Of a stretch of 64,000 nucleotides of DNA, positions 8,783-24,779 are shown piece after piece. Each line of letters begins with the position of its first letter. Positions within the stretch are counted from its first letter, which is position 1. The DNA comes from a virus, in the IMG/VR virus record IMGVR_UViG_3300027782_000038; one strand, given 5' to 3'. The notes below the pieces were generated by a model, which had not been told where the DNA came from, made no database searches, and was given only the letters and a program-made list of their open reading frames with translations. Made by a program: the position numbers and the translations under genes.

Positions 8783-8835
8783 AATTGTTGAATTAATTTA
8801 GAGTAGTATTGATGTATTATTTATAAGGAATATTT

Positions 8836-9654
8836 ATGGAAATTAGTATAAAAACAGAAGAATTAAAAAGTAAATCCATTTTTTGTGCAACACCAATGTA
8901 TGGTGGTATGAACCACGGACTTTACATGAAAGCTTGCCTTGATTTACAAGGTATGTGTATGCAGTATGGTATTCAAATTAAATTCTCATTTTTATTCAAT
9001 GAGTCATTAATTACCCGTGCTAGAAATTATCTCGTAGATGAATTTATTCATCGTTCAGACTGTACACATTTATTGTTTTTAGATTCGGACATTAGCTTTA
9101 ATCCGCAAGATGTTATTGCAATGTTGGCCTTAGATAAAGATGTTATTGGTGGTCCTTATCCAAAGAAAGCCATCAAGTGGCGTTCTGTTGCAAAAGCTTT
9201 AGAAAAGAATCCTCAAATGGATCACTCTATGCTTGAGAAAGTTGCTGGTGATTTCGTATTCAATCCAGTAAAAGGTACTGCACAATTTTCAGTTTCAGAA
9301 CCTTTGTCTGTTCTTGAAATTGGTACTGGTTTCATGATGGTTAAACGTGAAGTCTTTGCTAAGATGACTGAAGAATATCCAACAATTCGATATAAACCAG
9401 ATCATGTTGGCCAAGCAAACTTTGATGGTTCACGTTACATTCACGCTTTCTTTGATACTGTGATTGACACCAAAGAATCTATTACTGGTGGTGGTTCAGA
9501 TCGTTACTTGTCAGAAGATTATATGTTCTGTCAAATGTGGCGTAAAATGGGTGGAGAAATCTTCTTGTGTCCTTGGATGAGAACTGCACACATTGGTACG
9601 TATCACTTCCAAGGTGATATGCCTGCTGTGGCAAATTTTGTCGGAGAAATGTAA
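8836..9654 (+). CDS. Glycosyltransferase-like (GT-A) protein
   Basis: LFLDSD DxD motif, GTGFMM, SEDY.FC. Confidence 0.65.
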   Translation: MEISIKTEELKSKSIFCATPMYGGMNHGLYMKACLDLQGMCMQYGIQIKFSFLFNESLITRARNYLVDEFIHRSDCTHLLFLDSDISFNPQDVIAMLALDKDVIGGPYPKKAIKWRSVAKALEKNPQMDHSMLEKVAGDFVFNPVKGTAQFSVSEPLSVLEIGTGFMMVKREVFAKMTEEYPTIRYKPDHVGQANFDGSRYIHAFFDTVIDTKESITGGGSDRYLSEDYMFCQMWRKMGGEIFLCPWMRTAHIGTYHFQGDMPAVANFVGEM

Positions 9655-12646: not shown

Positions 12647-13035
12647 TGCCTGACTTATTCAAAGAAATTGTACCATCAATTCTACAAACCAAAAAGAATG
12701 TAATCCGTGATGAAATAGACTTGAAAGATTACAAGGCCTTTATGGTCAACCGAGCCTTGTCTTATCATCTAGATTGTATTTTATACGCCAATGAAATGAA
12801 CGTGCATAACCAACTTGATCCGGATATGCAATATTCTTATCTTCTAAATACTATCAGACCAATGAAACGGAAATTTCAACCGTGGCAAAAGGCTGAAGTA
12901 AATAAAGATTTAGAGTGTGTAAAACAGTATTTTGGTTATTCAAATGAAAAAGCTAAAGATGTTTTGCGGATTCTAAATGATGAACAAATCGCTGAAATAA
13001 AAGCAAAAACAAATAAAGGCGGAGTGATCAAGTAA
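12646..13035 (+). CDS. gp62: Clamp loader small subunit gp62
   Basis: FMVNRALS, YFGYSNEKA; follows gp44. Confidence 0.92.
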   Translation: MPDLFKEIVPSILQTKKNVIRDEIDLKDYKAFMVNRALSYHLDCILYANEMNVHNQLDPDMQYSYLLNTIRPMKRKFQPWQKAEVNKDLECVKQYFGYSNEKAKDVLRILNDEQIAEIKAKTNKGGVIK

Positions 13036-13442
13036 TGATTTCAATCTTAGATTTGATTGAAGTTACATTAAACGAAAAAGATGATTTTCTAAAGGTGAGA
13101 GAAACTTTAACTCGTATCGGTGTGGCTTCCAAGAAAGACAAAACACTATACCAATCTTGTCATATTTTACATAAACAAGGTAAGTATTATATTGTACATT
13201 TCAAAGAACTATTTGCTTTGGATGGTAAACCAACTGATATTACCGAAAACGACCTTTCTCGTAGGAATGCCATAGCTAAACTATTGCAGGATTGGGGACT
13301 GGTAAGTATTGTTAATGTGGAAGAATCTGAAGTCCCGGCACCGATATTTTTGTCCCAGGTGAAAATAATTTCTCATAAAGAGAAAGAAGATTGGAATTTA
13401 GTTCCAAAATATAGTATTGGTAAAAAATCCTATATAGCTTGA
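13035..13442 (+). CDS. regA: Translational repressor RegA
   Basis: DDFLKVRETLTRIG, LYQSCHILHKQG, VHFKELF. Confidence 0.96.
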   Translation: MISILDLIEVTLNEKDDFLKVRETLTRIGVASKKDKTLYQSCHILHKQGKYYIVHFKELFALDGKPTDITENDLSRRNAIAKLLQDWGLVSIVNVEESEVPAPIFLSQVKIISHKEKEDWNLVPKYSIGKKSYIA

Positions 13443-13992: not shown

Positions 13993-14055
13993 TGTTGTTT
14001 TTTAGCAACACTCATCAAAAAATCTATTGACAGGACCTATTATCTATAGTATAAT
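13993..14055 (+). promoter_or_regulatory. Palindrome TGTTG-N8-CAACA plus sigma70 promoter
   Basis: Palindrome 13993-14010; TTGACA(14027)-N17-TATAAT. Confidence 0.75.
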
Positions 14056-14760: not shown

Positions 14761-14835
14761 CTGGCGTTCGTATAGTGGACAATACAGTAGGCTTCTACCC
14801 TTCTAACGGGAGTTCGATTCTCTCACGCCGGACCA
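14761..14835 (+). tRNA. tRNA-Arg(TCT)
   Basis: Cloverleaf, loop CTTCTAC, TTCGA, CCA. Confidence 0.88.
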
Positions 14836-15319: not shown

Positions 15320-15398
15320 GGGCCTATAGCTCAGTCTGGTTAGCAGCAATCGTCTCATAAACGATAGGTCATGGGTTCAAATCCCGTTGGGCCCACCA
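15320..15398 (+). tRNA. tRNA-CAT (probably Ile2, possibly Met)
   Basis: GGGCCTA acceptor, loop CTCATAA, CCA. Confidence 0.88.
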
Positions 15399-15434: not shown

Positions 15435-15517
15435 GGGGGTATGGTGAAATTGGTAGACACACTTGGTTTAAGCCCAAACGCTTCGGCATGAGAGTTCGAA
15501 TCTCTCTACCCCCACCA
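15435..15517 (+). tRNA. tRNA-Leu(TAA)
   Basis: Loop TTTAAGC, variable arm, CCA. Confidence 0.9.
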
Positions 15518-16032: not shown

Positions 16033-16557
16033 ATGCAATTAAGTATAGTTGGTTGTCCTGATAAAAAACTATTCAGACCATACGTCAAACGTGCAATTTT
16101 ATTTTATGCTGAAGAATTGTTTAGTAAGAAAATGTCAGAAAACGTATTTCTACAAGTTAAATTTAATGCTGAATTAGATGTTTATGGTTACGCTTCCGTT
16201 GAAGATTGTAATAGTAGTGGTAAACCAAGAGAATTTTTAGTAGAAATAAATTCAGAAATTGGTGCACCTGATATTTTAAAAACAATTGCACATGAAATGG
16301 TTCATGTTAAACAATTCCTTTATGGTGAAACCAACGAAACATTAACTCGTTGGAAAGGCATGAAGATATCAAGTGATACTAATTACTATTGTCAACCTTG
16401 GGAAATAGAAGCTCATGGAATGGAAGTTAGTTTGTTCTCAAGGTTTGCAATCAAGGAGAAACTTTGGGACGTATTTGAAGGTGTAAATAATCCGGACGGT
16501 CCGGTAAAACAAACGGATATTGGTTGGAAAGAATCATTTTTGAATAGTACGTTGTAA
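16033..16557 (+). CDS. Zinc metallopeptidase-like protein
   Basis: AHEMVH and PWEIEA. Confidence 0.7.
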   Translation: MQLSIVGCPDKKLFRPYVKRAILFYAEELFSKKMSENVFLQVKFNAELDVYGYASVEDCNSSGKPREFLVEINSEIGAPDILKTIAHEMVHVKQFLYGETNETLTRWKGMKISSDTNYYCQPWEIEAHGMEVSLFSRFAIKEKLWDVFEGVNNPDGPVKQTDIGWKESFLNSTL

Positions 16558-16592
16558 AAATACAACAAGTTTGGTATATATTAAGAAAAATC

Positions 16593-16621
16593 TTGCCTAT
16601 ATACATATATAAGAGTATAAT
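16593..16621 (+). promoter_or_regulatory. sigma70 promoter driving the leader peptide
   Basis: TTGCCT-N17-TATAAT; palindrome copy at 16550-16567. Confidence 0.7.
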
Positions 16622-16657: not shown

Positions 16658-16756
16658 GTGTTATCAATACAGAAACCATCCATGCATACAGAGTATCGCA
16701 CACCGAGCAATTGGTCAGCGATTGGCTTTGATTGCGTCCGTGGGGTTTGTGTATAG
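16658..16756 (+). CDS. Candidate attenuator leader peptide, 32 aa, contains all 20 amino acids
   Basis: AAGGA RBS, GTG start, MLSIQKPSMHTEYRTPSNWSAIGFDCVRGVCV*; absent from ORF track. Confidence 0.75.
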   Translation: MLSIQKPSMHTEYRTPSNWSAIGFDCVRGVCV

Positions 16757-16821
16757 TTAGAAAGTAGTTTCCTCTAAATTTACAAACCCCAAGACCTAAA
16801 AAATCTTGGGGTTTTTCTTTT
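16741..16821 (+). terminator. Antiterminator/terminator switch
   Basis: Terminator AAACCCCAAGA(16784-94)/TCTTGGGGTTT(16804-14) plus T tract; competing TGGGGTTTGT(16741-50) pairs ACAAACCCCA(16782-91). Confidence 0.8.
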
Positions 16822-16823
16822 CC

Positions 16824-16885
16824 TGTTGTACAAAAACAACACTTTAGAAAATAGTTGTTGACATAGTGTGTGGAACCTGTATAAT
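16824..16885 (+). promoter_or_regulatory. Palindrome plus sigma70 promoter upstream of the tRNA array
   Basis: TGTTGTACAAAAACAACA; TTGACA(16858)-N16-TATAAT. Confidence 0.7.
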
Positions 16886-16937
16886 AGAGTCTGTTGTGTA
16901 ACAAAACGTTCTTTAAAAATTAGAGTAGTACATATGT

Positions 16938-17013
16938 TGGGGTATCGCCTAGAGGCCTAAGGCATCGGTCTTTGAAATCGAGATCACTGGTTCGAATCCA
17001 GTTACCCCTGCCA
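16938..17013 (+). tRNA. tRNA-Gln(TTG)
   Basis: Loop CTTTGAA, CCA. Confidence 0.9.
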
Positions 17014-17121
17014 TATTGAAGTACATTCAAGGCGTAGCGCACGCTGATATAGTGGACATAGCTAAGCTCTGAACAGGCATTGTTGGCAGGTTCGATTCCT
17101 GCGGAGTGTATTTCAATATGG
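17011..17121 (+). ncRNA. Structured RNA with a T-arm inside a long closing stem
   Basis: CCATATTGAAGTACATTC / GAGTGTATTTCAATATGG enclosing GCAGG-TTCGATT-CCTGC. Confidence 0.5.
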
Positions 17122-17213
17122 TAAGTAAGAATAGACGAAAAGTCACCGGTGAGACTAGATGCTTTGGCAACAGAGCTAGGTTTATTCTTGTCGATCTTGG
17201 CCAATCGACACCA
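17120..17213 (+). ncRNA. Multi-hairpin RNA ending in ACCA
   Basis: AAGAATAGAC/GTTTATTCTT stem, GCTTTG-GCAA-CAGAGC hairpin, TGTCGAT..ATCGACA-CCA. Confidence 0.45.
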
Positions 17214-17235
17214 TATTAATATGGTATTAACAAAT

Positions 17236-17323
17236 GGGTAGGTGGTAGAGTGGTCTATTGCTCCAGTCTTGAAAACTGGCGACTGGAAACGGTCCGTGGG
17301 TTCGAATCCCACCCTGCCCTCCA
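17236..17323 (+). tRNA. tRNA-Ser(TGA)
   Basis: Loop CTTGAAA, long variable arm, CCA. Confidence 0.9.
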
Positions 17324-17374
17324 TTATTGAAAACCAAAATGTACTAAATAAAGTCATACATTTTGGAGATAAAA

Positions 17375-17818
17375 ATGCAAAAAAGATCATCAGCTAGAGA
17401 TTTAGCTATACAGGAAAATAAAAAAACTTATTTAGCTAAACCTTGTAAATCATGCGGTACAAGTGAAAAATATGTAAGTAGTTATAGTTGTGTGAAATGC
17501 AATATTGAAAAGAATTCACATAAATTATTTAATAGTGATTTGATGGAAAAATACAGATCAAAATCAATATTAAATGCAAAAACATATAGGTATCGTTCTA
17601 GAAAAAGAAACCAGATGCCTGATGATGCAGATAAAGAAAAGATATTGGAGTTTTATAAAGAAGCAGAACGATTAACTGAAGAAACAGGAATCTTGTATAG
17701 TGTGGATCATATAATACCTTTATCGAAAGGAGGTCTACACCATCATGATAATTTACAAGTTATCACATTAAGTGAAAATAGTAGAAAGGGGAATAAATTA
17801 TGCCAGCCGTTTTCTTAA
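17375..17818 (+). mobile_element. HNH homing endonuclease
   Basis: CxxC pairs, VDHIIPLSKGGLHHHDNLQ; late promoter-like ACTAAATA at 17343. Confidence 0.88.
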
Positions 17819-18396
17819 CATCAGATAGCCACTTCGGCCACGCCGGTGTTTGTCGTTTTACACACCAAGATACAGGTGTAAAAATTAGACCATGGACAGA
17901 TCCAGATGAAATGGATGAAGCGATGGTCAAACTCTGGAACGAAAAAGTAGGTAAGAATGATAAAGTATATCACCTTGGTGACGTAGTAATTAACCGTAAA
18001 GCTCTTGGTATTATGCGTAGACTTAACGGTGATAAAGTTCTTATTCGTGGTAACCATGATATTTTTCGTGATGATGAATACCGCCAACATTTCAGAGAGC
18101 TTCGTGCTTATCATGTAATGAACGGAATGATTCTTTCACATATTCCACTTCATCCAGATAGTGTAGGTAGATTTGGTACTAACATTCATGGACACCTTCA
18201 TACGAACCGTGTTATGAAGGCGAAAGGAATTAATTATCCGACTGGAGAAATTATCTACAGCGAAACGGAGATTGATCCACGTTATCATTGTGTTTGTGTT
18301 GAACAAACAGATTTTACACCAATTCTTTTTGAAGATGTAATTAAGAGAATTGAAGCACAAGGTGGCAAGGTAGGTTTTCAGAACGGAAATGGGTAG
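17800..18396 (+). CDS. Calcineurin-like metallophosphoesterase
   Basis: DSHFGH, LGD, GNHD, HGHLH. Confidence 0.9.
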   Translation: MPAVFLTSDSHFGHAGVCRFTHQDTGVKIRPWTDPDEMDEAMVKLWNEKVGKNDKVYHLGDVVINRKALGIMRRLNGDKVLIRGNHDIFRDDEYRQHFRELRAYHVMNGMILSHIPLHPDSVGRFGTNIHGHLHTNRVMKAKGINYPTGEIIYSETEIDPRYHCVCVEQTDFTPILFEDVIKRIEAQGGKVGFQNGNG

Positions 18397-18478
18397 TTGG
18401 CCGAGCGGTTAAGGCAAGGGATTGCTAATCCCTCATTGGGAAACCGATGGATAGGTTCGATTCCTATACTACCCGCCA
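18391..18478 (+). tRNA. tRNA-Ser(GCT)
   Basis: Loop TTGCTAA, long variable arm, CCA; overlaps upstream stop codon. Confidence 0.9.
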
Positions 18479-18486
18479 TTTTTAAT

Positions 18487-18564
18487 AGTGCGATGGCTGA
18501 GTGGTCAAAAGCAACGGATTGCAAATCCGTAAAATCGTCAGTTCAAATCTGACTCGCACTTCCA
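18487..18564 (+). tRNA. tRNA-Cys(GCA)
   Basis: Loop TTGCAAA, U73, CCA. Confidence 0.9.
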
Positions 18565-18626
18565 TGTTGTAAGAAAACAACAGATTGTAAAATACTTGTT
18601 GACATATTGTGTGGTTCATGTATAAT
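18565..18626 (+). promoter_or_regulatory. Palindrome plus internal sigma70 promoter
   Basis: TGTTGTAAGAAAACAACA; TTGACA(18599)-N16-TATAAT. Confidence 0.7.
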
Positions 18627-18646
18627 AGAGTCTATTGTTTAGTAAT

Positions 18647-18721
18647 GCACCGTTAGACTTCTGGTGAGGTCACCACCCTTTCAAGGTGGCTAGATGGGAT
18701 CGTAACCCATACGGTGTACCA
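18647..18721 (+). tRNA. tRNA-Glu(TTC)
   Basis: Loop CTTTCAA, atypical T loop, CCA. Confidence 0.85.
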
Positions 18722-18728
18722 GTTTAAT

Positions 18729-18804
18729 GCAGGCATAACTCAACTGGTAGAGTAATCGGCTTTTAACCGATAAGTTGTGAGTTCAAGTCTCACTGCCTGT
18801 ACCA
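18729..18804 (+). tRNA. tRNA-Lys(TTT)
   Basis: Loop CTTTTAA, CCA. Confidence 0.9.
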
Positions 18805-18818
18805 AAGAATTTTTTGGT

Positions 18819-18892
18819 GTGACTATGTTGTAACGGTAGCAACGCAGTTTGTGATTCTGCTAGTCTGGGTTCAACTCCCAGTAGTCACCCCA
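18819..18892 (+). tRNA. tRNA-His(GTG)
   Basis: Loop TTGTGAT, C73, CCA. Confidence 0.87.
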
Positions 18893-18904
18893 AAAAGTTT
18901 TAAT

Positions 18905-18979
18905 GGCTCGTTAGTATAATGGTTATTACAGAGGATTGTCTATCCTCCTATGGGAGTTCGATTCTCCCACGGGTCGCCA
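18905..18979 (+). tRNA. tRNA-Asp(GTC)
   Basis: Loop TTGTCTA, G73, CCA. Confidence 0.88.
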
Positions 18980-18983
18980 AGTT

Positions 18984-19078
18984 TTGCACCTGGCGTAATG
19001 GTAGCGTTACAGGTTAGTATCGAAAGGTATGCCCGAGAGGCGATGCGGGAGGTGCAGGTTCGAATCCTGCGGTGCAAA
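18984..19078 (+). ncRNA. tRNA-like RNA without a canonical anticodon arm
   Basis: TTGCACC/GGTGCAA acceptor, D-loop-like TAATGGTAG, perfect T arm, two small internal hairpins, no CCA. Confidence 0.55.
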
Positions 19079-19088
19079 AAAAGTTTAT

Positions 19089-19172
19089 GCGTTGGATGCT
19101 CTAATGGTAGGGCAGCGGGCTGTAACCCCGTGGTTTTAGGACAAGTAGGTTCGATCCCTACCCAACGCACCA
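19089..19172 (+). tRNA. tRNA-Tyr(GTA)
   Basis: Loop CTGTAAC, variable arm, CCA. Confidence 0.88.
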
Positions 19173-19242
19173 AGTTTTATTTGGAGAACACTTTAATTGT
19201 ATAAATTGTTCAATTTATAAATACTCCAAAAAGGAGTGTGAT

Positions 19243-19806
19243 ATGTGGTCTTGTAAACATTGTAACGAAGAATTTAATTTTATTACGACTAGTGAAAAAG
19301 GTAATCATACTAGATGGTGTGAAAAAAATCCAAATAGAGTTAGTGTTAATCTTTTAAATTCTATAAAAAATAGAATGATCAATAAATTTGGTGATTATAA
19401 AAAATTTGATGTTATTTGTAATGAATGTAATACAATTTTTATTGTAGAAGAAAGATATAAACTTTTTCCTTCAAAAGAAAAATACTTTTGTTCACGAAAC
19501 TGTGCAAATAGTGTTGGTGGTAAAGCTAAAAGAGAAAAGTATGGTTTAACCGGATATGTTTCTATTGCAAAACAATTTTATGAAGAAAAATGTATAGTTT
19601 GTGGTTATGATGAATTAGTTGATGTTCATCATATAAATGGAGATAGGAATAACAATGAAGCAACAAATTTAGTGTTCCTATGTCCAAATCACCATTATCT
19701 TTTACATAGAAAAAAATCAGAAAAAGTTAAACAAGCAATTTCAGAATTTATAGAAAAAAAATGGGGTCAAGGTGTTGATGACGGCACACGAGATTTGCAA
19801 TCTTGA
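19243..19806 (+). mobile_element. HNH homing endonuclease
   Basis: Zinc motifs, DVHHINGDRNNN..NLVFLCPNHH; TATAAATA at 19216. Confidence 0.88.
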
Positions 19807-19837
19807 AGGTAGAGTTTGATTCTCTATGGCTCCACCA
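19763..19837 (+). tRNA. tRNA-Ala(TGC)
   Basis: G3:U70 pair, loop TTTGCAA, CCA. Confidence 0.85.
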
Positions 19838-19859
19838 AGTTTTAAATAGTGTTCTTTGT

Positions 19860-19934
19860 CTGGGTATATTGTCAATCTGGTAGACGGCCTTGTTTGGAAC
19901 GAGGAGGCTGTAGGTTCAAATCCTACTACCCAGA
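19860..19934 (+). tRNA. tRNA-Pro(TGG)
   Basis: Loop TTTGGAA; no encoded CCA. Confidence 0.85.
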
Positions 19935-19947
19935 CAAAGAACATTAT

Positions 19948-20022
19948 GGAAGTATAGCGTAGAGGTAGCGCAGCGCCTTCATACGGCGTAGGTCGTAAGT
20001 TCAAATCTTACTACTTCCACCA
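19948..20022 (+). tRNA. tRNA-Met(CAT)
   Basis: Loop TTCATAC, CCA. Confidence 0.87.
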
Positions 20023-20027
20023 GTTTT

Positions 20028-20102
20028 AGGTCCTTAGTAAAATGAATATTACATTTCGCTACGAACGAAAAAGTGAAGGTTTGATTCCTTCAGGACCTTC
20101 CA
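20028..20102 (+). tRNA. tRNA-Arg(ACG)
   Basis: Loop CTACGAA, CCA. Confidence 0.83.
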
Positions 20103-20176
20103 AGTATTAAATGCTGGGGTGCTCAGAGGAAGAGCAATGTGTTGATCTATACTAAATAAGTATAGGAGAGTAAAAA

Positions 20177-20779
20177 ATGTCAAAATTTCAAATAAAATGT
20201 TGTTGTATTAAATGTAAGATTGAAACTACAACGGGGCAACTTACACGAAATCATAAAGATAAATGTCCGAGTATTAACGTTGTTAAATTTCCTAAAAATA
20301 TAGGAAGAACCGCATGGAATAAAGGATTAACTAAAGAAACTTCTGAATCTTTATCAAAAGCAAGCGAGACTATGAAAAGATTAGGTCACGGTGGGTGGTC
20401 AAAGACAGCTGCTACAAATGGCGGAAAAGCCGGTGGCGGATATAGAGAGAACGCTGGCCGAAGTAAAAAATTCAAAGTAACAGATTCATTCGGAAAAGAA
20501 ACTGTCTTGCAAAGTACATACGAATTAAGATGTAGTGATATATTAAATGAATTAGCAATTAATTGGATTCGTCCAAAAGCGTTAAAATACGATAATAGGA
20601 ATTACTTTGCTGATTTTTACCTGCCAGATTACAATATCTGGCTTGATCCTAAAAATAGTTATAAAGCAAAGCAAGACGAAGAAAAAATAAGAAAAGTGAT
20701 AGAACAAAACAATGTTAAATTATATATTTTGTTAGAAGAACATCTTACTGAAGAATTTATACAACACCTTTGTAGTTAA
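20177..20779 (+). mobile_element. Putative PD-(D/E)xK homing endonuclease
   Basis: AWNKGLTKET, STYE..YFADFYLP..LDPK; ACTAAATA at 20151. Confidence 0.78.
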
Positions 20780-20839
20780 ATGGTATAACAGCCGCTTGAT
20801 AAGCGGCCATTACAAGTTCAATTCTTGTCGAAGGTACCA
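20766..20839 (+). tRNA. tRNA-Ile(GAT)
   Basis: Loop TTGATAA, CCA; overlaps the endonuclease stop. Confidence 0.87.
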
Positions 20840-20845
20840 AGTTTT

Positions 20846-20920
20846 ATCGCTCTAGTGTCAACGGCAGCACAACTGACTCCAAATCAGCTGGTGAGGGTTC
20901 GAATCCTTCGGGCGGTGCCA
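20846..20920 (+). tRNA. tRNA-Trp(CCA)
   Basis: Loop CTCCAAA, CCA. Confidence 0.88.
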
Positions 20921-20928
20921 AGTTTTAA

Positions 20929-21002
20929 GCGGGTATGATGTAAAGGTAACCTGACACCTTGCCAAGGTGTATTTGAGAGTTCGATTCTCTCTACCCGCTC
21001 CA
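20929..21002 (+). tRNA. tRNA-Gly(GCC)
   Basis: Loop TTGCCAA, U73, CCA. Confidence 0.9.
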
Positions 21003-21022
21003 TTTAACAAGGAGAATATATT

Positions 21023-21499
21023 GTGCGTACTATTGATATTCAAGAAGTAAAATCTTTCATCGAGTCTCAGGGTCCTGATACAAAGATTTATATTGGTGGT
21101 GACTCCGAAAGATTTAATCTTGGTAATGTATGGTACGCTGATTACACTCTTGCTATTGTTGTTCATGTGAATGGAAACAATGGTTGTAAAATTTTCGGTG
21201 AAGTTCAACGTGAACGTGATTGGGATGCTAAAAAAGACCGACCACGGATGCGATTAATGAATGAGGTTTATAAGATTGCCGAATTATATTTAAAGTTACA
21301 AGATGTATTAGAAGATCGTGTGGTAGAAGTTCACTTGGACATTAATCCAAACGAAATGCATGGTTCATCTTGTGTTATTAATGAAGCAATAGGTTACATC
21401 AAAGGTATGTGTAATGTTATTCCTTTGGTTAAACCACAAGCGTTTGCTGCTTCTTATGCAGCAGATAGATTGAAGTTTGTTTTAGATAGAGCAGCATAA
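21023..21499 (+). CDS. RNase H-like YkuK/DUF458 family protein
   Basis: IYIGGDS, RLMNEV, EVHLDIN, ASYAAD. Confidence 0.8.
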   Translation: MRTIDIQEVKSFIESQGPDTKIYIGGDSERFNLGNVWYADYTLAIVVHVNGNNGCKIFGEVQRERDWDAKKDRPRMRLMNEVYKIAELYLKLQDVLEDRVVEVHLDINPNEMHGSSCVINEAIGYIKGMCNVIPLVKPQAFAASYAADRLKFVLDRAA

Positions 21500-21500
21500 C

Positions 21501-21575
21501 GGATTCTTAGCACAGCGGTAGTGCGGCTCCCTTACAAGGAGTAGGTCGTAGGTTCAATCCCTACAGAATCCACCA
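21501..21575 (+). tRNA. tRNA-Val(TAC)
   Basis: Loop CTTACAA, CCA. Confidence 0.9.
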
Positions 21576-21580
21576 ATACT

Positions 21581-21656
21581 GCTGACTTAGCTGATGTGGT
21601 CATAGCGGCGGTTTGAAGAACCGTTGAAGTTGGTTCGATTCCAACAGTTAGCACCA
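21581..21656 (+). tRNA. tRNA-Phe(GAA)
   Basis: Loop TTGAAGA, CCA. Confidence 0.88.
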
Positions 21657-21661
21657 GAATT

Positions 21662-21738
21662 GCCTCGGTGACGTAATTGGTAGCCGTGTTGGTCTTAGAA
21701 ACCAAATTCTGTGGGTTCGAGTCCCACCTGAGGCACCA
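21662..21738 (+). tRNA. tRNA-Leu(TAG), short variable loop
   Basis: Loop CTTAGAA, CCA. Confidence 0.87.
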
Positions 21739-21800
21739 AGTTTACCAATATATCACTTGACTTTAAAACTTGAGTGATATATAATAGTATATAAGAGTTA

Positions 21801-21875
21801 GCCCTCATAGTATAATGGCCATTACAGTTGACTTGTAATCATCAAATCCTAGTTCGATTCCAGGTGGGGGCACCA
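21801..21875 (+). tRNA. tRNA-Thr(TGT)
   Basis: Loop CTTGTAA, CCA; preceded by TTGACT..TATAAT promoter at 21757-21785. Confidence 0.87.
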
Positions 21876-21885
21876 AAGTTTTTAT

Positions 21886-21951
21886 GCGGCGTGTTTAGGA
21901 CAGTGAAGGTGACCAACCTGATCTCTAGTGTCGAAACTAGGCGCCGCTCCA
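21886..21951 (+). ncRNA. Miniature or degenerate tRNA-Gly-like RNA (possible ACC anticodon)
   Basis: GCGGCGT/GCGCCGC-T-CCA acceptor, reduced D arm, CTAGT/ACTAG T stem. Confidence 0.55.
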
Positions 21952-21972
21952 GTTTTTTTATTGTGAGATAAT

Positions 21973-22197
21973 ATGTTTGTTAAATTGACCAATGCTAATC
22001 CTGCTTTTTCAGGTAAACCACTTCTTATTAGGAAAGATTTAATTGTGACTGTGTACGAAGGTACACTAACGCATGAGGATACTTCTACTGAATCAGTAAC
22101 GTTTGTTTTTGCACCACCTCATGGTGAGTGGCAAGTTAAAGAAAGTGTTGAAGAAGTATTACGATCATTAAGAATTGCAACAACAAAGTTAGATTGA
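21973..22197 (+). CDS. Small hypothetical protein (FlbD-like pattern)
   Basis: MFVKLT...WQVKESVEEV. Confidence 0.55.
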   Translation: MFVKLTNANPAFSGKPLLIRKDLIVTVYEGTLTHEDTSTESVTFVFAPPHGEWQVKESVEEVLRSLRIATTKLD

Positions 22198-22205
22198 AGT
22201 TTTAT

Positions 22206-22281
22206 TCCCCAGTAGCTCAGTCGGTAGAGCAAAACACTGTTAATGTTTGGGTCATTGGTTCAAGTCCAGTCTGGGGAGCCA
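22206..22281 (+). tRNA. tRNA-Asn(GTT)
   Basis: Loop CTGTTAA, CCA. Confidence 0.9.
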
Positions 22282-22302
22282 TTTTATAAAAAAGGTAGTA
22301 AT

Positions 22303-22500
22303 ATGAAAGCAGTTTTGTCTAGTGTTATATCAGTATTGGCACTTACTGGATGTGTAGTAACAGATCCATATTATGTTCAACCTGTGCCAATATATGTTCA
22401 ACCTAGACCTGTGTATATCGTTCCGCAAGTTCGTTGTTATTATATGCAACAATGGAATGGTTATAAAAGACAATATCAAACTGTTCATATTTGTCGTTAA
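22303..22500 (+). CDS. Small lipoprotein
   Basis: Signal peptide with LTGC lipobox. Confidence 0.7.
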   Translation: MKAVLSSVISVLALTGCVVTDPYYVQPVPIYVQPRPVYIVPQVRCYYMQQWNGYKRQYQTVHICR

Positions 22501-22511
22501 GAAGTAAATAT

Positions 22512-22585
22512 GCGAGATTAGTTTAATGGTAAAACTCCTTCCTTCCAAGTAGGTGTCATCAGTTCGATTCTGATATCTCGCTCCA
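22512..22585 (+). tRNA. tRNA-Gly(TCC)
   Basis: Loop CTTCCAA, U73, CCA. Confidence 0.88.
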
Positions 22586-22606: not shown

Positions 22607-22918
22607 ATGGAAATTATTGCTTTAAAATTAATTACAGGTGAAGATGTTTTAGGTGAACTTGAATCTGAAACAGAACTTGTTGTAGTATTATCTAATCCAG
22701 TTGGTATCGCTGTCGTTCGTGGTAAAGACGGTACACCAAATATCGGATTCTCGCCGTTCCCTATTCATGCGGAACAAAAAAAAGACAACTCAATTGTTTT
22801 CTTAAATAAACACGTTGTTTATCATTATATACCAGCTGAAGATTTTATTACAAATTACAAACAAATCTTTGGTTCAGGTATCGTAGTTCCACCCCAAAAA
22901 CAGATTATTACAGGTTAA
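22607..22918 (+). CDS. Conserved Sm-like hypothetical protein
   Basis: LKLITGEDVLG...YKQIFGSGIVVP. Confidence 0.6.
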   Translation: MEIIALKLITGEDVLGELESETELVVVLSNPVGIAVVRGKDGTPNIGFSPFPIHAEQKKDNSIVFLNKHVVYHYIPAEDFITNYKQIFGSGIVVPPQKQIITG

Positions 22919-24216
22919 TGAGCAAATATTATACAAACGTTCAATGTTTCGGTAACAGTATTCTTTACCGAGGCATTATAGACGGTAAACGTGTTAAACA
23001 GAGAATTGATTATTCTCCATCACTTTATCTCCCATCAAGAAAGAATCCACAGGGAAAATTCAAATCACTAACTGGTCTTCCATTAGATCAAAAAGAATTT
23101 GATGATATTCGTGCAGCCAGAGATTTCATCAAGCAATTTGATGGTCTTCCTGGTGCACCTGTCATCTATGGTCAAAATCGTTTTGAGTATGCTTATATTG
23201 CCGATAACAATAAAGGTATGGTTGATTACGATCAGGATAAAATTCTTATCGGTGTAGTTGATATTGAGGTTGGTTCAGAGAATGGTTTTCCTGATCCATA
23301 CCTTGCAAACGAACCAATCACAGCCATTGGCATTAAGTATCTCAATGGTGAAATGGTTGTATTTGGTTGCGGTGATTATGAGAAGAAAGGTACCGAGATT
23401 TACGTCAAATGTAAAGATGAATGGACACTATGCAAAAAGTTTCTAGAATTATGGCAAAAGAAATGTCCAGATATCATCACAGGATGGAACACAAAGTTCT
23501 TTGATATTCCATATCTCATCAATCGTTTTCGTAAGATTCTTGGTGAAGATGATGCTAAGAAATTATCACCATGGAATTACATTGGTGAACGTAAAACCAC
23601 CATTAATGGTAAACAGTTAATTGCCTATGACATGATGGGTGTTGCATCACTTGATTATATTGAACTATACAAATGGTATGCTCCTGGTGGTAAGTCACAA
23701 GAATCATATCGTTTGGATAACATTGCTCAAAATGAATTGGGTGAAGGTAAAATTTCATATGATGAATATGATAACCTACATTCATTGTATCGTTTGAACT
23801 TTCAATTGTTTATTGAATATAACATCAAAGACGTTGAATTGATTGTTAAGTTGGAAGATAAATTAAAGTTACTTGAGATGGCTGTTACTTTGGCCTACGA
23901 TACTAAATCAAACTATGAGGATGTATTTGCACAGACCCGTATGTGGGACGCAATGACTTATTCTTATCTTTTAGAAAAGGATATCATTGTACCACCACGT
24001 ATCATCAAAGAAAAAGATGGTATGTTTGAAGGTGCATACGTTAAAGAAGTACAAGTTGGTGCTCATGATTGGGTTGCCAGCTTTGACCTAAATTCACTTT
24101 ACCCCCACCTTATGATGCAATATTCCATAAGTCCTGAAAATCTTGTGGAAAGAAGTTATATTGAAGATAGAAAACAAAAATTGATCGAGGAGTTAAAGTT
24201 GAGAAATACTAAATAA
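22918..24216 (+). CDS. gp43: DNA polymerase gp43, fragment 1 (exonuclease plus motif A)
   Basis: DIEV, GWN..FDIPY, YNIKDV, SFDLNSLYPH. Confidence 0.93.
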   Translation: MSKYYTNVQCFGNSILYRGIIDGKRVKQRIDYSPSLYLPSRKNPQGKFKSLTGLPLDQKEFDDIRAARDFIKQFDGLPGAPVIYGQNRFEYAYIADNNKGMVDYDQDKILIGVVDIEVGSENGFPDPYLANEPITAIGIKYLNGEMVVFGCGDYEKKGTEIYVKCKDEWTLCKKFLELWQKKCPDIITGWNTKFFDIPYLINRFRKILGEDDAKKLSPWNYIGERKTTINGKQLIAYDMMGVASLDYIELYKWYAPGGKSQESYRLDNIAQNELGEGKISYDEYDNLHSLYRLNFQLFIEYNIKDVELIVKLEDKLKLLEMAVTLAYDTKSNYEDVFAQTRMWDAMTYSYLLEKDIIVPPRIIKEKDGMFEGAYVKEVQVGAHDWVASFDLNSLYPHLMMQYSISPENLVERSYIEDRKQKLIEELKLRNTK

Positions 24217-24245
24217 GTAGATGTGGTTACTTATTAGGAGAATCA

Positions 24246-24779
24246 ATGAAATACAATATTACCAAAGATAAACTCTATGAATTGTTTATTACCAAGAATA
24301 TGAGAAGGAGTGAGGTTGCCGAATATTTTGGTTGTTCGGATGCCAACATTAAAAAATACCTACAAAAATTTGCCATCAAGAAGCCTTTTGATTTAGAATG
24401 TAAGAATAAAGAACGAAAGGCCTTGTTGAATTGCTTACATTGTAATAATGAATATGAAACACAAAAGTTTCGGACTGAAAGTGATAAGTATGATTCAAAA
24501 TATTGTAGTTATTCCTGTGCTCAAAAAAGTAGATATTTGGGTGGCGACCACAAACGTAGAATCAGAAATGAAATTGCTGCAAGGCGTAGAGCAAGAATTC
24601 GTAACCAAACACCAAAATTGAGTAAAGAAGAAAAGAAAAAGTTACAAGAATATTATTTGATTTGTCCTAAAGGACATGAAGTGGATCACATACAAGCAAT
24701 TGCAAAAGGTGGTTTACATCATCCTGATAACTTACAGATATTGACTATGAATGAGAATAGAAAAAAGTGGTGTAAATAA
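24246..24779 (+). mobile_element. HNH endonuclease inserted in gp43
   Basis: EVDHIQAIAKGGLHHPDNLQ; ACTAAATA at 24207; AGGAG RBS. Confidence 0.88.

Follow-up and report, generated by a model that had tools for sequence, protein, structure and literature searches.

Phage tRNA arrays are usually seen as supplements to codon usage or as substitutes for host tRNAs that degradation or defence nucleases have removed, and to our knowledge little has been described of how their expression is controlled. In bacteria, several described systems tie transcription to translation or answer its impairment. In the attenuators of amino-acid operons (trpL, hisL, pheL and the multivalent thr and ilvGMEDA leaders), a brief leader is translated ahead of an intrinsic terminator, an antiterminator and this terminator exclude each other, and the stop codon is so placed that a ribosome terminating there masks the antiterminator strand; the pheL leader attenuators have been surveyed (PMC3082878). 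In the case of mycobacterial whiB7, antitermination coupled to an open reading frame (uORF) lying upstream reacts when any of many different amino acids, tRNAs or synthetases is in short supply, with a spectrum set by the uORF coding sequence (PMC10274678), and in Anabaena the trn operon, a supplementary array of about 26 tRNA genes, is expressed upon impaired translation (PMC8421152, PMC10272220). Here we describe a locus in a 64,000-nucleotide stretch of an uncultured freshwater T4-like phage (IMG/VR record IMGVR_UViG_3300027782_000038; hereafter the window, meaning the whole stretch), where a leader containing all 20 amino acids, set in an attenuator-like layout, precedes an array of tRNA genes for the same 20 amino acids. 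On the reading that we regard, with some reserve, as the probable one, this array would be expressed via two routes, its own promoters and a ribosome-mediated attenuator, the latter being an added, demand-driven component rather than the sole switch.

The tRNA genes were called with ARAGORN and with Rfam RF00005 (cut-off 29 bits). ARAGORN finds 24 of them in the window, all on the + strand, as are the promoters, the leader elements and the array ORFs described below: three lie upstream of the leader and 21 within 16938–22585, and a tRNA-Ala gene detected only by Rfam brings the downstream set to 22, serving all 20 amino acids. The array extends from the start of tRNA-Gln (ttg; 16938–17013) to the end of tRNA-Gly (tcc; 22512–22585), the exact limits of the original prediction, whose count of 22 genes for 20 amino acids is borne out. 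Between these ends lie tRNA-Ser (tga; 17236–17323); Ser (gct) and Cys (gca) at 18391–18564; Glu (ttc), Lys (ttt), His (gtg) and Asp (gtc) at 18647–18979; Tyr (gta; 19089–19172); Ala (tgc; 19763–19837); Pro (tgg), Met (cat, elongator-like) and Arg (acg) at 19860–20102; Ile (gat), Trp (cca) and Gly (gcc) at 20766–21002; Val (tac), Phe (gaa) and Leu (tag) at 21501–21738; and Thr (tgt; 21801–21875) and Asn (gtt; 22206–22281), the final segment from Thr to Gly (21801–22585) including two small ORFs. Apart from Ala and Tyr, all were found by both ARAGORN and Rfam. With 22 genes in 5,648 bp, or 3.9 per kb, the array falls within the definition of a tRNA array unit, namely at least 20 tRNA genes at a density of at least 2 per kb (PMC4758250). 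The three upstream genes, likewise as predicted, are tRNA-Arg (tct; 14761–14835, Rfam 50.5 bits), a tRNA with anticodon cat (15320–15398) and tRNA-Leu (taa; 15435–15517), each supported by both ARAGORN and Rfam. If the cat tRNA reads ATA, the codons of this trio are heavily used by the phage: AGA makes up 36% of Arg codons, TTA 35% of Leu and ATA 20% of Ile.

Ahead of the array, the leader ORF (16658–16756) begins with a GTG codon 6 nt downstream of AAGGA, comprises 32 codons and ends with a TAG stop, and its 32-residue peptide contains all 20 amino acids. The last codons of the leader (region 2, 16738–16752) constitute the 5′ strand of a predicted antiterminator; they pair with region 3 (16780–16794) at −17.6 kcal/mol in a duplex fold and −18.7 kcal/mol in the local centroid. 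Region 3 may pair instead with 16804–16814, giving an intrinsic terminator (16784–16821) with an 11-bp stem, a 9-nt loop and a T-run, so that the 3′ strand of the antiterminator includes the 5′ arm of the terminator. The stop codon starts 2 nt past region 2, and the leader fold has a z-score of −4.8. Read from the sequence, this arrangement of leader, terminator and antiterminator is classical attenuator geometry. A promoter-like site, TTGCCT-N17-TATAAT (16593–16621), matches the consensus at 10 of 12 positions and is preceded by a one-mismatch palindrome (16551–16566); in relatives, promoters of 11–12/12 occupy this place. Several leader codons are rare in the phage genes (CGC 4%, GCG 4%, AGC 4%, GGG 2%, TCC 8% and GTC 9% of their families), which could reflect needs of RNA structure or a tuning of sensitivity. 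The chance of 20 amino-acid types in 32 residues is about 4e-4 to 1.6e-3 per ORF, and the window has 295 small ORFs; as one such ORF among 295 could be luck, relatives were examined.

Relatives were gathered through a conserved 174-aa gene situated upstream of the leader (16033–16557; no Pfam match, two PHROGs of unknown function), which has at least 394 relatives in IMG/VR. A 14-mer of the leader added more loci, and an nhmmer profile found the element in about 63 IMG/VR loci; the exact leader 19-mer has no match in IMG/VR. Among 37 distinct leader peptides, mostly of 32–41 residues, 35 comprise 19–20 amino-acid types against about 15 expected, the probability of at least 19 types being about 0.6–3.6% per peptide. 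Between leader subfamilies His, Gln, Lys, Cys and Ala change place, a pattern that suggests conservation of the presence rather than the position of amino acids. Since a MAFFT alignment misaligns the terminator arms, structure pairs were counted per sequence by script. Of 40 distinct sequences, 38 have the antiterminator duplex (median −19.6 kcal/mol, z −3.8), with a 5′ strand whose end falls from −8 to +4 nt relative to the stop codon and with at least 7 nt shared with the 5′ arm of the terminator, and terminators of −12 to −15 kcal/mol are likewise present in 38 of the 40. The antiterminator helix exists in 24 distinct versions, some of them with multi-base compensatory changes. By these comparisons, the leader element is real and conserved. 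In several subfamilies (L100, L091, L137, L161, L008, L063 and others) the leader ATG lies 6–7 nt past TATAAT, with TTGACA 17 nt upstream, so that the leader mRNA would be leaderless; other subfamilies carry a GGAG Shine-Dalgarno sequence.

Such a conserved structure might also be an RNA switch of the riboswitch or T-box kind, whose fold would itself detect a ligand or a tRNA, the reading frame being a by-product. The conserved hairpin core (GTATCGC...GCGAT), the alternative folds and the strongly negative fold z-score are what this explanation would lead one to expect. Nevertheless, the leader region has no match to an Rfam family at E<=1, and the variation within the 14-codon core falls at synonymous third positions in four of its five variable sites. 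The start codon, the Shine-Dalgarno sequence or leaderless promoter spacing, and the placement of the stop are all conserved, and amino-acid completeness would be meaningless for a non-coding RNA. We therefore consider a direct RNA sensor very improbable.

In the preferred reading, what the leader encodes should bear a relation to what follows it, and this is the case. Leader loci with downstream room have large arrays starting with tRNA-Gln, with up to 29 genes and 19–20 amino-acid types. Leaders of 19–20 types accompany arrays of 23–29 tRNAs, and absent or short leaders accompany small ones: relatives that have the 174-aa gene and no full leader carry 1–14 tRNAs. At two loci (L014, L048) there are only a terminator and a promoter, with no leader. 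Other relatives have a leader of 22–25 codons with the same terminator/antiterminator design, the terminator abutting the first tRNA, and arrays of 3–14 tRNAs. For the 11 distinct short leaders whose arrays are untruncated, the leader includes 85% of the amino-acid types of its own array (permutation p=0.0003, to be taken as an upper estimate of significance, as the members are related and both the counts and the p-value overstate their independence). Glu is consistently missing from the short leaders relative to their arrays. The link between a complete array and a 20-amino-acid leader is supported by their co-occurrence across relatives, the check that the original prediction had asked for, with leader, terminator and antiterminator conserved in relatives, the repertoire of the leader tracking that of the array, and one exception (L044, discussed below). 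On these grounds we propose, as an idea we find plausible without being persuaded of it, that the leaders of this clade of freshwater T4-like phages list the repertoire of their own array, from about 22 codons (3–14 tRNAs) to 32–41 codons (all 20 amino acids). The phage would then gauge decoding capacity codon by codon and raise the tRNA supply upon any depletion, such as that caused by host shut-off or anticodon-nuclease defences, and mobile early-promoter cassettes would repeatedly bypass this control.

Those cassettes are conspicuous in the window, where six perfect TTGACA-N16/17-TATAAT sites occur, all on the + strand, against 0.1 expected. An early-type cassette at 13993–14055, composed of a TGTTG-N8-CAACA palindrome and TTGACA-N17-TATAAT (14027), heads the unit with the upstream trio. 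Another lies between the terminator and the array (16824–16885): its palindrome is at 16824–16841 and its 12/12 promoter, TTGACA-N16-TATAAT, at 16858–16885, 40 nt past the terminator and 52 nt ahead of tRNA-Gln. A second array cassette, again a palindrome with TTGACA-N16-TATAAT (18599), precedes tRNA-Glu (18565–18626) and is about 83% identical to that at 16824, and a third array promoter, TTGACT-N17-TATAAT, with 11 matches out of 12, precedes tRNA-Thr (21757–21785). The upstream palindrome is common to the promoters at 14027, 16858 and 18599; in the window, TGTTG-N8-CAACA occurs at 13993, 16824, 18565, 55989 and 57038 (with the one-mismatch copy at 16551), 16 bp upstream of the −35 box. From its distribution, it looks like an operator or a PeSL stem-loop of an early regulon that includes the tRNA promoters. 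Two other candidate words did not hold: CCTATATA as a phage-specific promoter word has 2 matches against 1.6 expected, and TCTNTAAAAATT, conserved directly upstream of the first tRNA, has 7 against 8.3 as a general promoter motif. In several relatives a further motif, GTTCTTTAAAAATT-N-AGTAGTA (16908–16932 in the window; 8815–8838 and 9390–9413 in L076), is conserved 5–30 nt ahead of the tRNA that comes first behind a promoter or terminator; across the window it shows no enrichment, and it is perhaps a processing site.

The position of the cassette at 16824 bears directly on how the array may be controlled. An attenuator should have no promoter between itself and its genes, and the window departs from this, as do 33 of 40 distinct relatives, where a promoter of 10/12 or better separates terminator and tRNA-Gln; most relatives have further ones inside the array. 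In the subclade whose leader is closest to that of the window (L076, L181, L144 and L044), a 12/12 promoter stands ahead of the leader instead, and no promoter of at least 11/12 was found between the terminator and tRNA-Gln. Furthermore, the arrays of L181, L144 and L044 contain none of at least 11/12 at all, and in L076 the first comes only behind 22 of the 25 tRNAs, with a 9/12 cassette before Glu. A contig about 98% identical to the window, from DNA run X4, joins 16822 to 16907 and hence is without exactly the promoter cassette. In these cases without an intervening promoter, that is, the subclade, the short-leader loci and the X4 strain variant, the attenuator would gate the array directly. 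The cassettes at 13993, 16824 and 18565, compared with PeSLs by description only, show the same combination of a stem-loop or terminator with an early promoter, repeated and at indel boundaries. Since mobile PeSLs are known in T4-like phages and the cassette is polymorphic, we read the intervening promoter as a later addition, probably a mobile, PeSL-like insertion into an older, directly gated design.

Our preferred model of two routes follows this arrangement. In the first, the early-type promoters at 16858 and 18599, which combine the palindrome with a sigma-70 consensus, together with the 11/12 promoter at 21757, would drive the tRNAs of the array directly, and the same promoter type at 14027 would drive the upstream trio. 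In the second, transcripts from 16593 or 14027 would run into the ribosome-mediated attenuator. A ribosome that reaches the stop codon would mask region 2, and the terminator would form; a ribosome stalled earlier, at the codon of a scarce, cleaved or uncharged tRNA, would leave region 2 free to form the antiterminator, allowing transcription into the array. The attenuator would in this way supplement tRNA synthesis, in addition to the early promoters or once these have acted.

The same evidence bears on the stricter scheme of the original prediction, in which the upstream trio is a constitutive supplement and the 22 downstream genes stay silent until the attenuator is relieved, as an inducible replacement set. 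A real attenuator and a complete array are shared by this scheme and ours, and it would suit the relatives that lack an intervening promoter (L181, L144, L076 and the short-leader loci) as well as the cassette-less strain variant. In the window, however, the 12/12 promoter between the terminator and tRNA-Gln, and two more inside the array, stand against silence, and the trio lies behind the same class of palindrome-plus-consensus promoter, so that, by sequence, trio and array look co-regulated rather than separately regulated as had been supposed. The position of the trio is not conserved either: across relatives Arg-tct is often found upstream, in most cases together with a cat tRNA, and Leu-taa mostly lies at the distal end of the array; L076, L122 and L088 carry both Arg-tct and Leu-taa, and a cat tRNA as well, inside the downstream array. 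Moreover, the sole Leu codon of the leader is TTA and one of its Ile codons is ATA, both decoded by the upstream tRNAs. What stands of the prediction is the match of a complete array to a complete leader; the clean division into a constitutive and an inducible tier does not hold for this phage, and we judge the strict scheme quite unlikely.

A different explanation would dispense with sensing altogether: the element could be a PeSL-type module boundary of a hyperplastic region, its small ORF being an unrelated micro-gene or an incidental frame. In T4-like phages, PeSL cassettes, which join a stem-loop or terminator to a consensus early promoter, are repeated and serve as mobile boundaries of variable, hyperplastic regions with indels between close strains (PMC4122927, PMC2839356). 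The cassette described here is also repeated and strain-polymorphic and is located in the gap between regA and gene 43, and the two loci that have a terminator and a promoter but no leader are in line with such a boundary. It would leave unexplained, though, the 19–20 amino-acid types seen throughout the family, an antiterminator that overlaps both the end of the ORF and the terminator arm and shows compensatory changes, and the short leaders, which match their arrays in content and adjoin the first tRNA. We regard this alternative as unlikely.

Several observations weigh against the two-route reading itself or limit its reach. With a consensus promoter directly downstream, the share of read-through may be quantitatively small. 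The classical geometry lets only about the first 23 of the 32 leader codons free region 2, and Phe, Asp, Cys and Val come later in the window leader, so that the sensing of all 20 amino acids is incompletely explained; these four would be poorly sensed under standard geometry, which also counts against the strict two-tier scheme. Most amino acids occur once per leader, as opposed to the runs of regulatory codons in classical attenuators. The 1:2 (anti-antiterminator) pairing, which in a leader-peptide attenuator would sequester region 2 of an untranslated leader, can form in every member (median −13.5 kcal/mol) and is no better than in shuffled sequences. In L044 (5666–7597), a 19-type leader is followed by only 8 tRNAs and then by non-tRNA DNA, probably as a result of a recent loss of most of the array by deletion. 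Finally, parts of the region have identical contigs in two lake metatranscriptome runs; these contigs cannot reveal starts, ends or read-through and may derive from DNA carry-over.

The completeness of the array hinges on a functional tRNA-Ala gene, which is the weakest member of the set. ARAGORN misses it, and Rfam RF00005 gives 39.2 bits at 19763–19834. By eye, its anticodon is TGC, G3 pairs with U70 and the CCA end is encoded; it can be aligned with Ala-tgc genes from relatives, and a close sequence counterpart was not found among them. Its D and T loops are atypical, with G19 changed to A in the former and C56 changed to T in the latter, which look like a paired change. An HNH-like ORF (19243–19806) overlaps with its 3′ end the first 44 nt of this gene, which points to insertion of a homing endonuclease and a reshaping of the 5′ half of the tRNA gene by it. 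In the case of tRNA-Tyr, Rfam gives the related Sec model (38.6 bits); ARAGORN calls Tyr, and the gene is 92% identical to an annotated phage tRNA-Tyr. The remaining tRNAs score 41–71 bits, and the concern that several genes might prove to be pseudo-tRNAs is not borne out: all 22 stand, with the reservation just made for Ala. Both cat tRNAs have a G1:C72 pair and lack a GGG/CCC anticodon stem; by the established rules for initiators, neither looks like an initiator, no initiator tRNA-fMet was found among the tRNAs of the window with both cat genes inspected, and the set hence covers elongation only. The cat tRNA at 15320 has C4:G69 and C5:G68, which we take to be determinants of TilS; its assignment to Ile2, which rests on them, is plausible.

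The array is interrupted by ORFs for two HNH-like proteins, one endonuclease-like protein, one phosphoesterase and one PF04308 protein. An HNH endonuclease-like ORF (17363–17818) overlaps the phosphoesterase ORF (17800–18396; calcineurin-like, phrog_547); the second HNH-like ORF is that next to tRNA-Ala; the endonuclease-like ORF lies at 20177–20779 and the PF04308 RNaseH-like ORF at 21023–21499. Going by these assignments, the phosphoesterase and the RNaseH-like protein are possible RNA end-healing or processing enzymes.

Two tRNA-like elements lie among the genes of the array, and neither can decode. The element at 18984–19078 (95 nt; Rfam 39.3 bits), between tRNA-Asp and tRNA-Tyr, has acceptor, D and T arms, and in place of the 17-nt anticodon arm there are two small hairpins amounting to 41 nt, which precludes decoding. 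It fails as a canonical tRNA for want of a 7-nt anticodon loop, and it is precisely missing from a strain variant in which 18979 is joined to 19087, with GTTTTA instead; it could be a decayed tRNA, a decoy or a processing element. The weaker element at 17023–17111, with a T-arm-like GGTTCGATTCC, is not called as a tRNA: it has no RF00005 match, and its best score is 13.4 bits with tRNA-Sec. It belongs to a variable segment (17028–17217) between tRNA-Gln and tRNA-Ser, and is replaced or absent in strain variants from two DNA runs. No close sequence counterpart of either element was found in the relatives.

The gp43-type DNA polymerase of this phage is at most 47% identical to its counterparts in cyanomyoviruses and in pelagiphage HTVC008M. 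Among 50,697 deposited phage records there is no relative of the window at the DNA level, and near and distant DNA searches of the phage collection returned isolated tRNA matches only, none of them to the leader; freshwater and lake metagenomes contain DNA near-identical to the window. The tRNA region occupies the gap from regA (13035–13442) to gene 43 (start 22918), regA and the adjoining clamp-loader gene having been assigned by eye from their translations. The polymerase frame stops at 24216, and an HNH endonuclease gene comes next (24246–24779), so that the polymerase is split (22918–24779).

If the proposed reading is true, a leader that lists the amino acids of an array would let the tRNA pool be sensed in a simple and general way, and would put trp-style attenuation to a new use. 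For this phage some caution is due, as the strong promoters of the array itself mean that an inducible replacement set is clean only in some relatives. What the present analysis contributes is a check of the array, the internal promoters, the polymorphism of the cassette and the graded series of leaders. That natural series, with no, short or full leaders and with or without the cassette, provides ready-made constructs for testing the idea.

As regards known systems, in the literature we found no description of leader-peptide or attenuator control of tRNA genes, or of arrays behind a repertoire-matched leader attenuator, within a coverage that is limited for subscription journals. The array itself resembles the large tRNA clusters and array units of phages in its number of tRNA genes (at least 20), in their density (more than 2 per kb), in the homing-endonuclease genes scattered among them and in being carried by a large lytic phage (PMC6409571, PMC4758250). 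PeSLs are undescribed with a translated leader or a competing antiterminator; here the TGTTG-N8-CAACA palindrome, rather than the terminator, travels with the promoter. The attenuators of amino-acid operons have runs of one or a few amino acids and control biosynthetic enzymes, in contrast to a near-single copy of all 20 amino acids ahead of phage tRNA genes, and the window differs from them also in the strong promoter between attenuator and genes. The whiB7 uORF is enriched in alanine and controls a bacterial transcription factor, whereas the leader described here is compositionally complete and precedes phage tRNA genes; the Anabaena trn operon is governed by a protein repressor, TrcR, and resides on a cellular megaplasmid, instead of following a leader peptide in a phage. 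Judged by these likenesses, the nearest functional analogue of the locus is the whiB7 uORF switch, and the nearest analogue of its output is the Anabaena trn operon.

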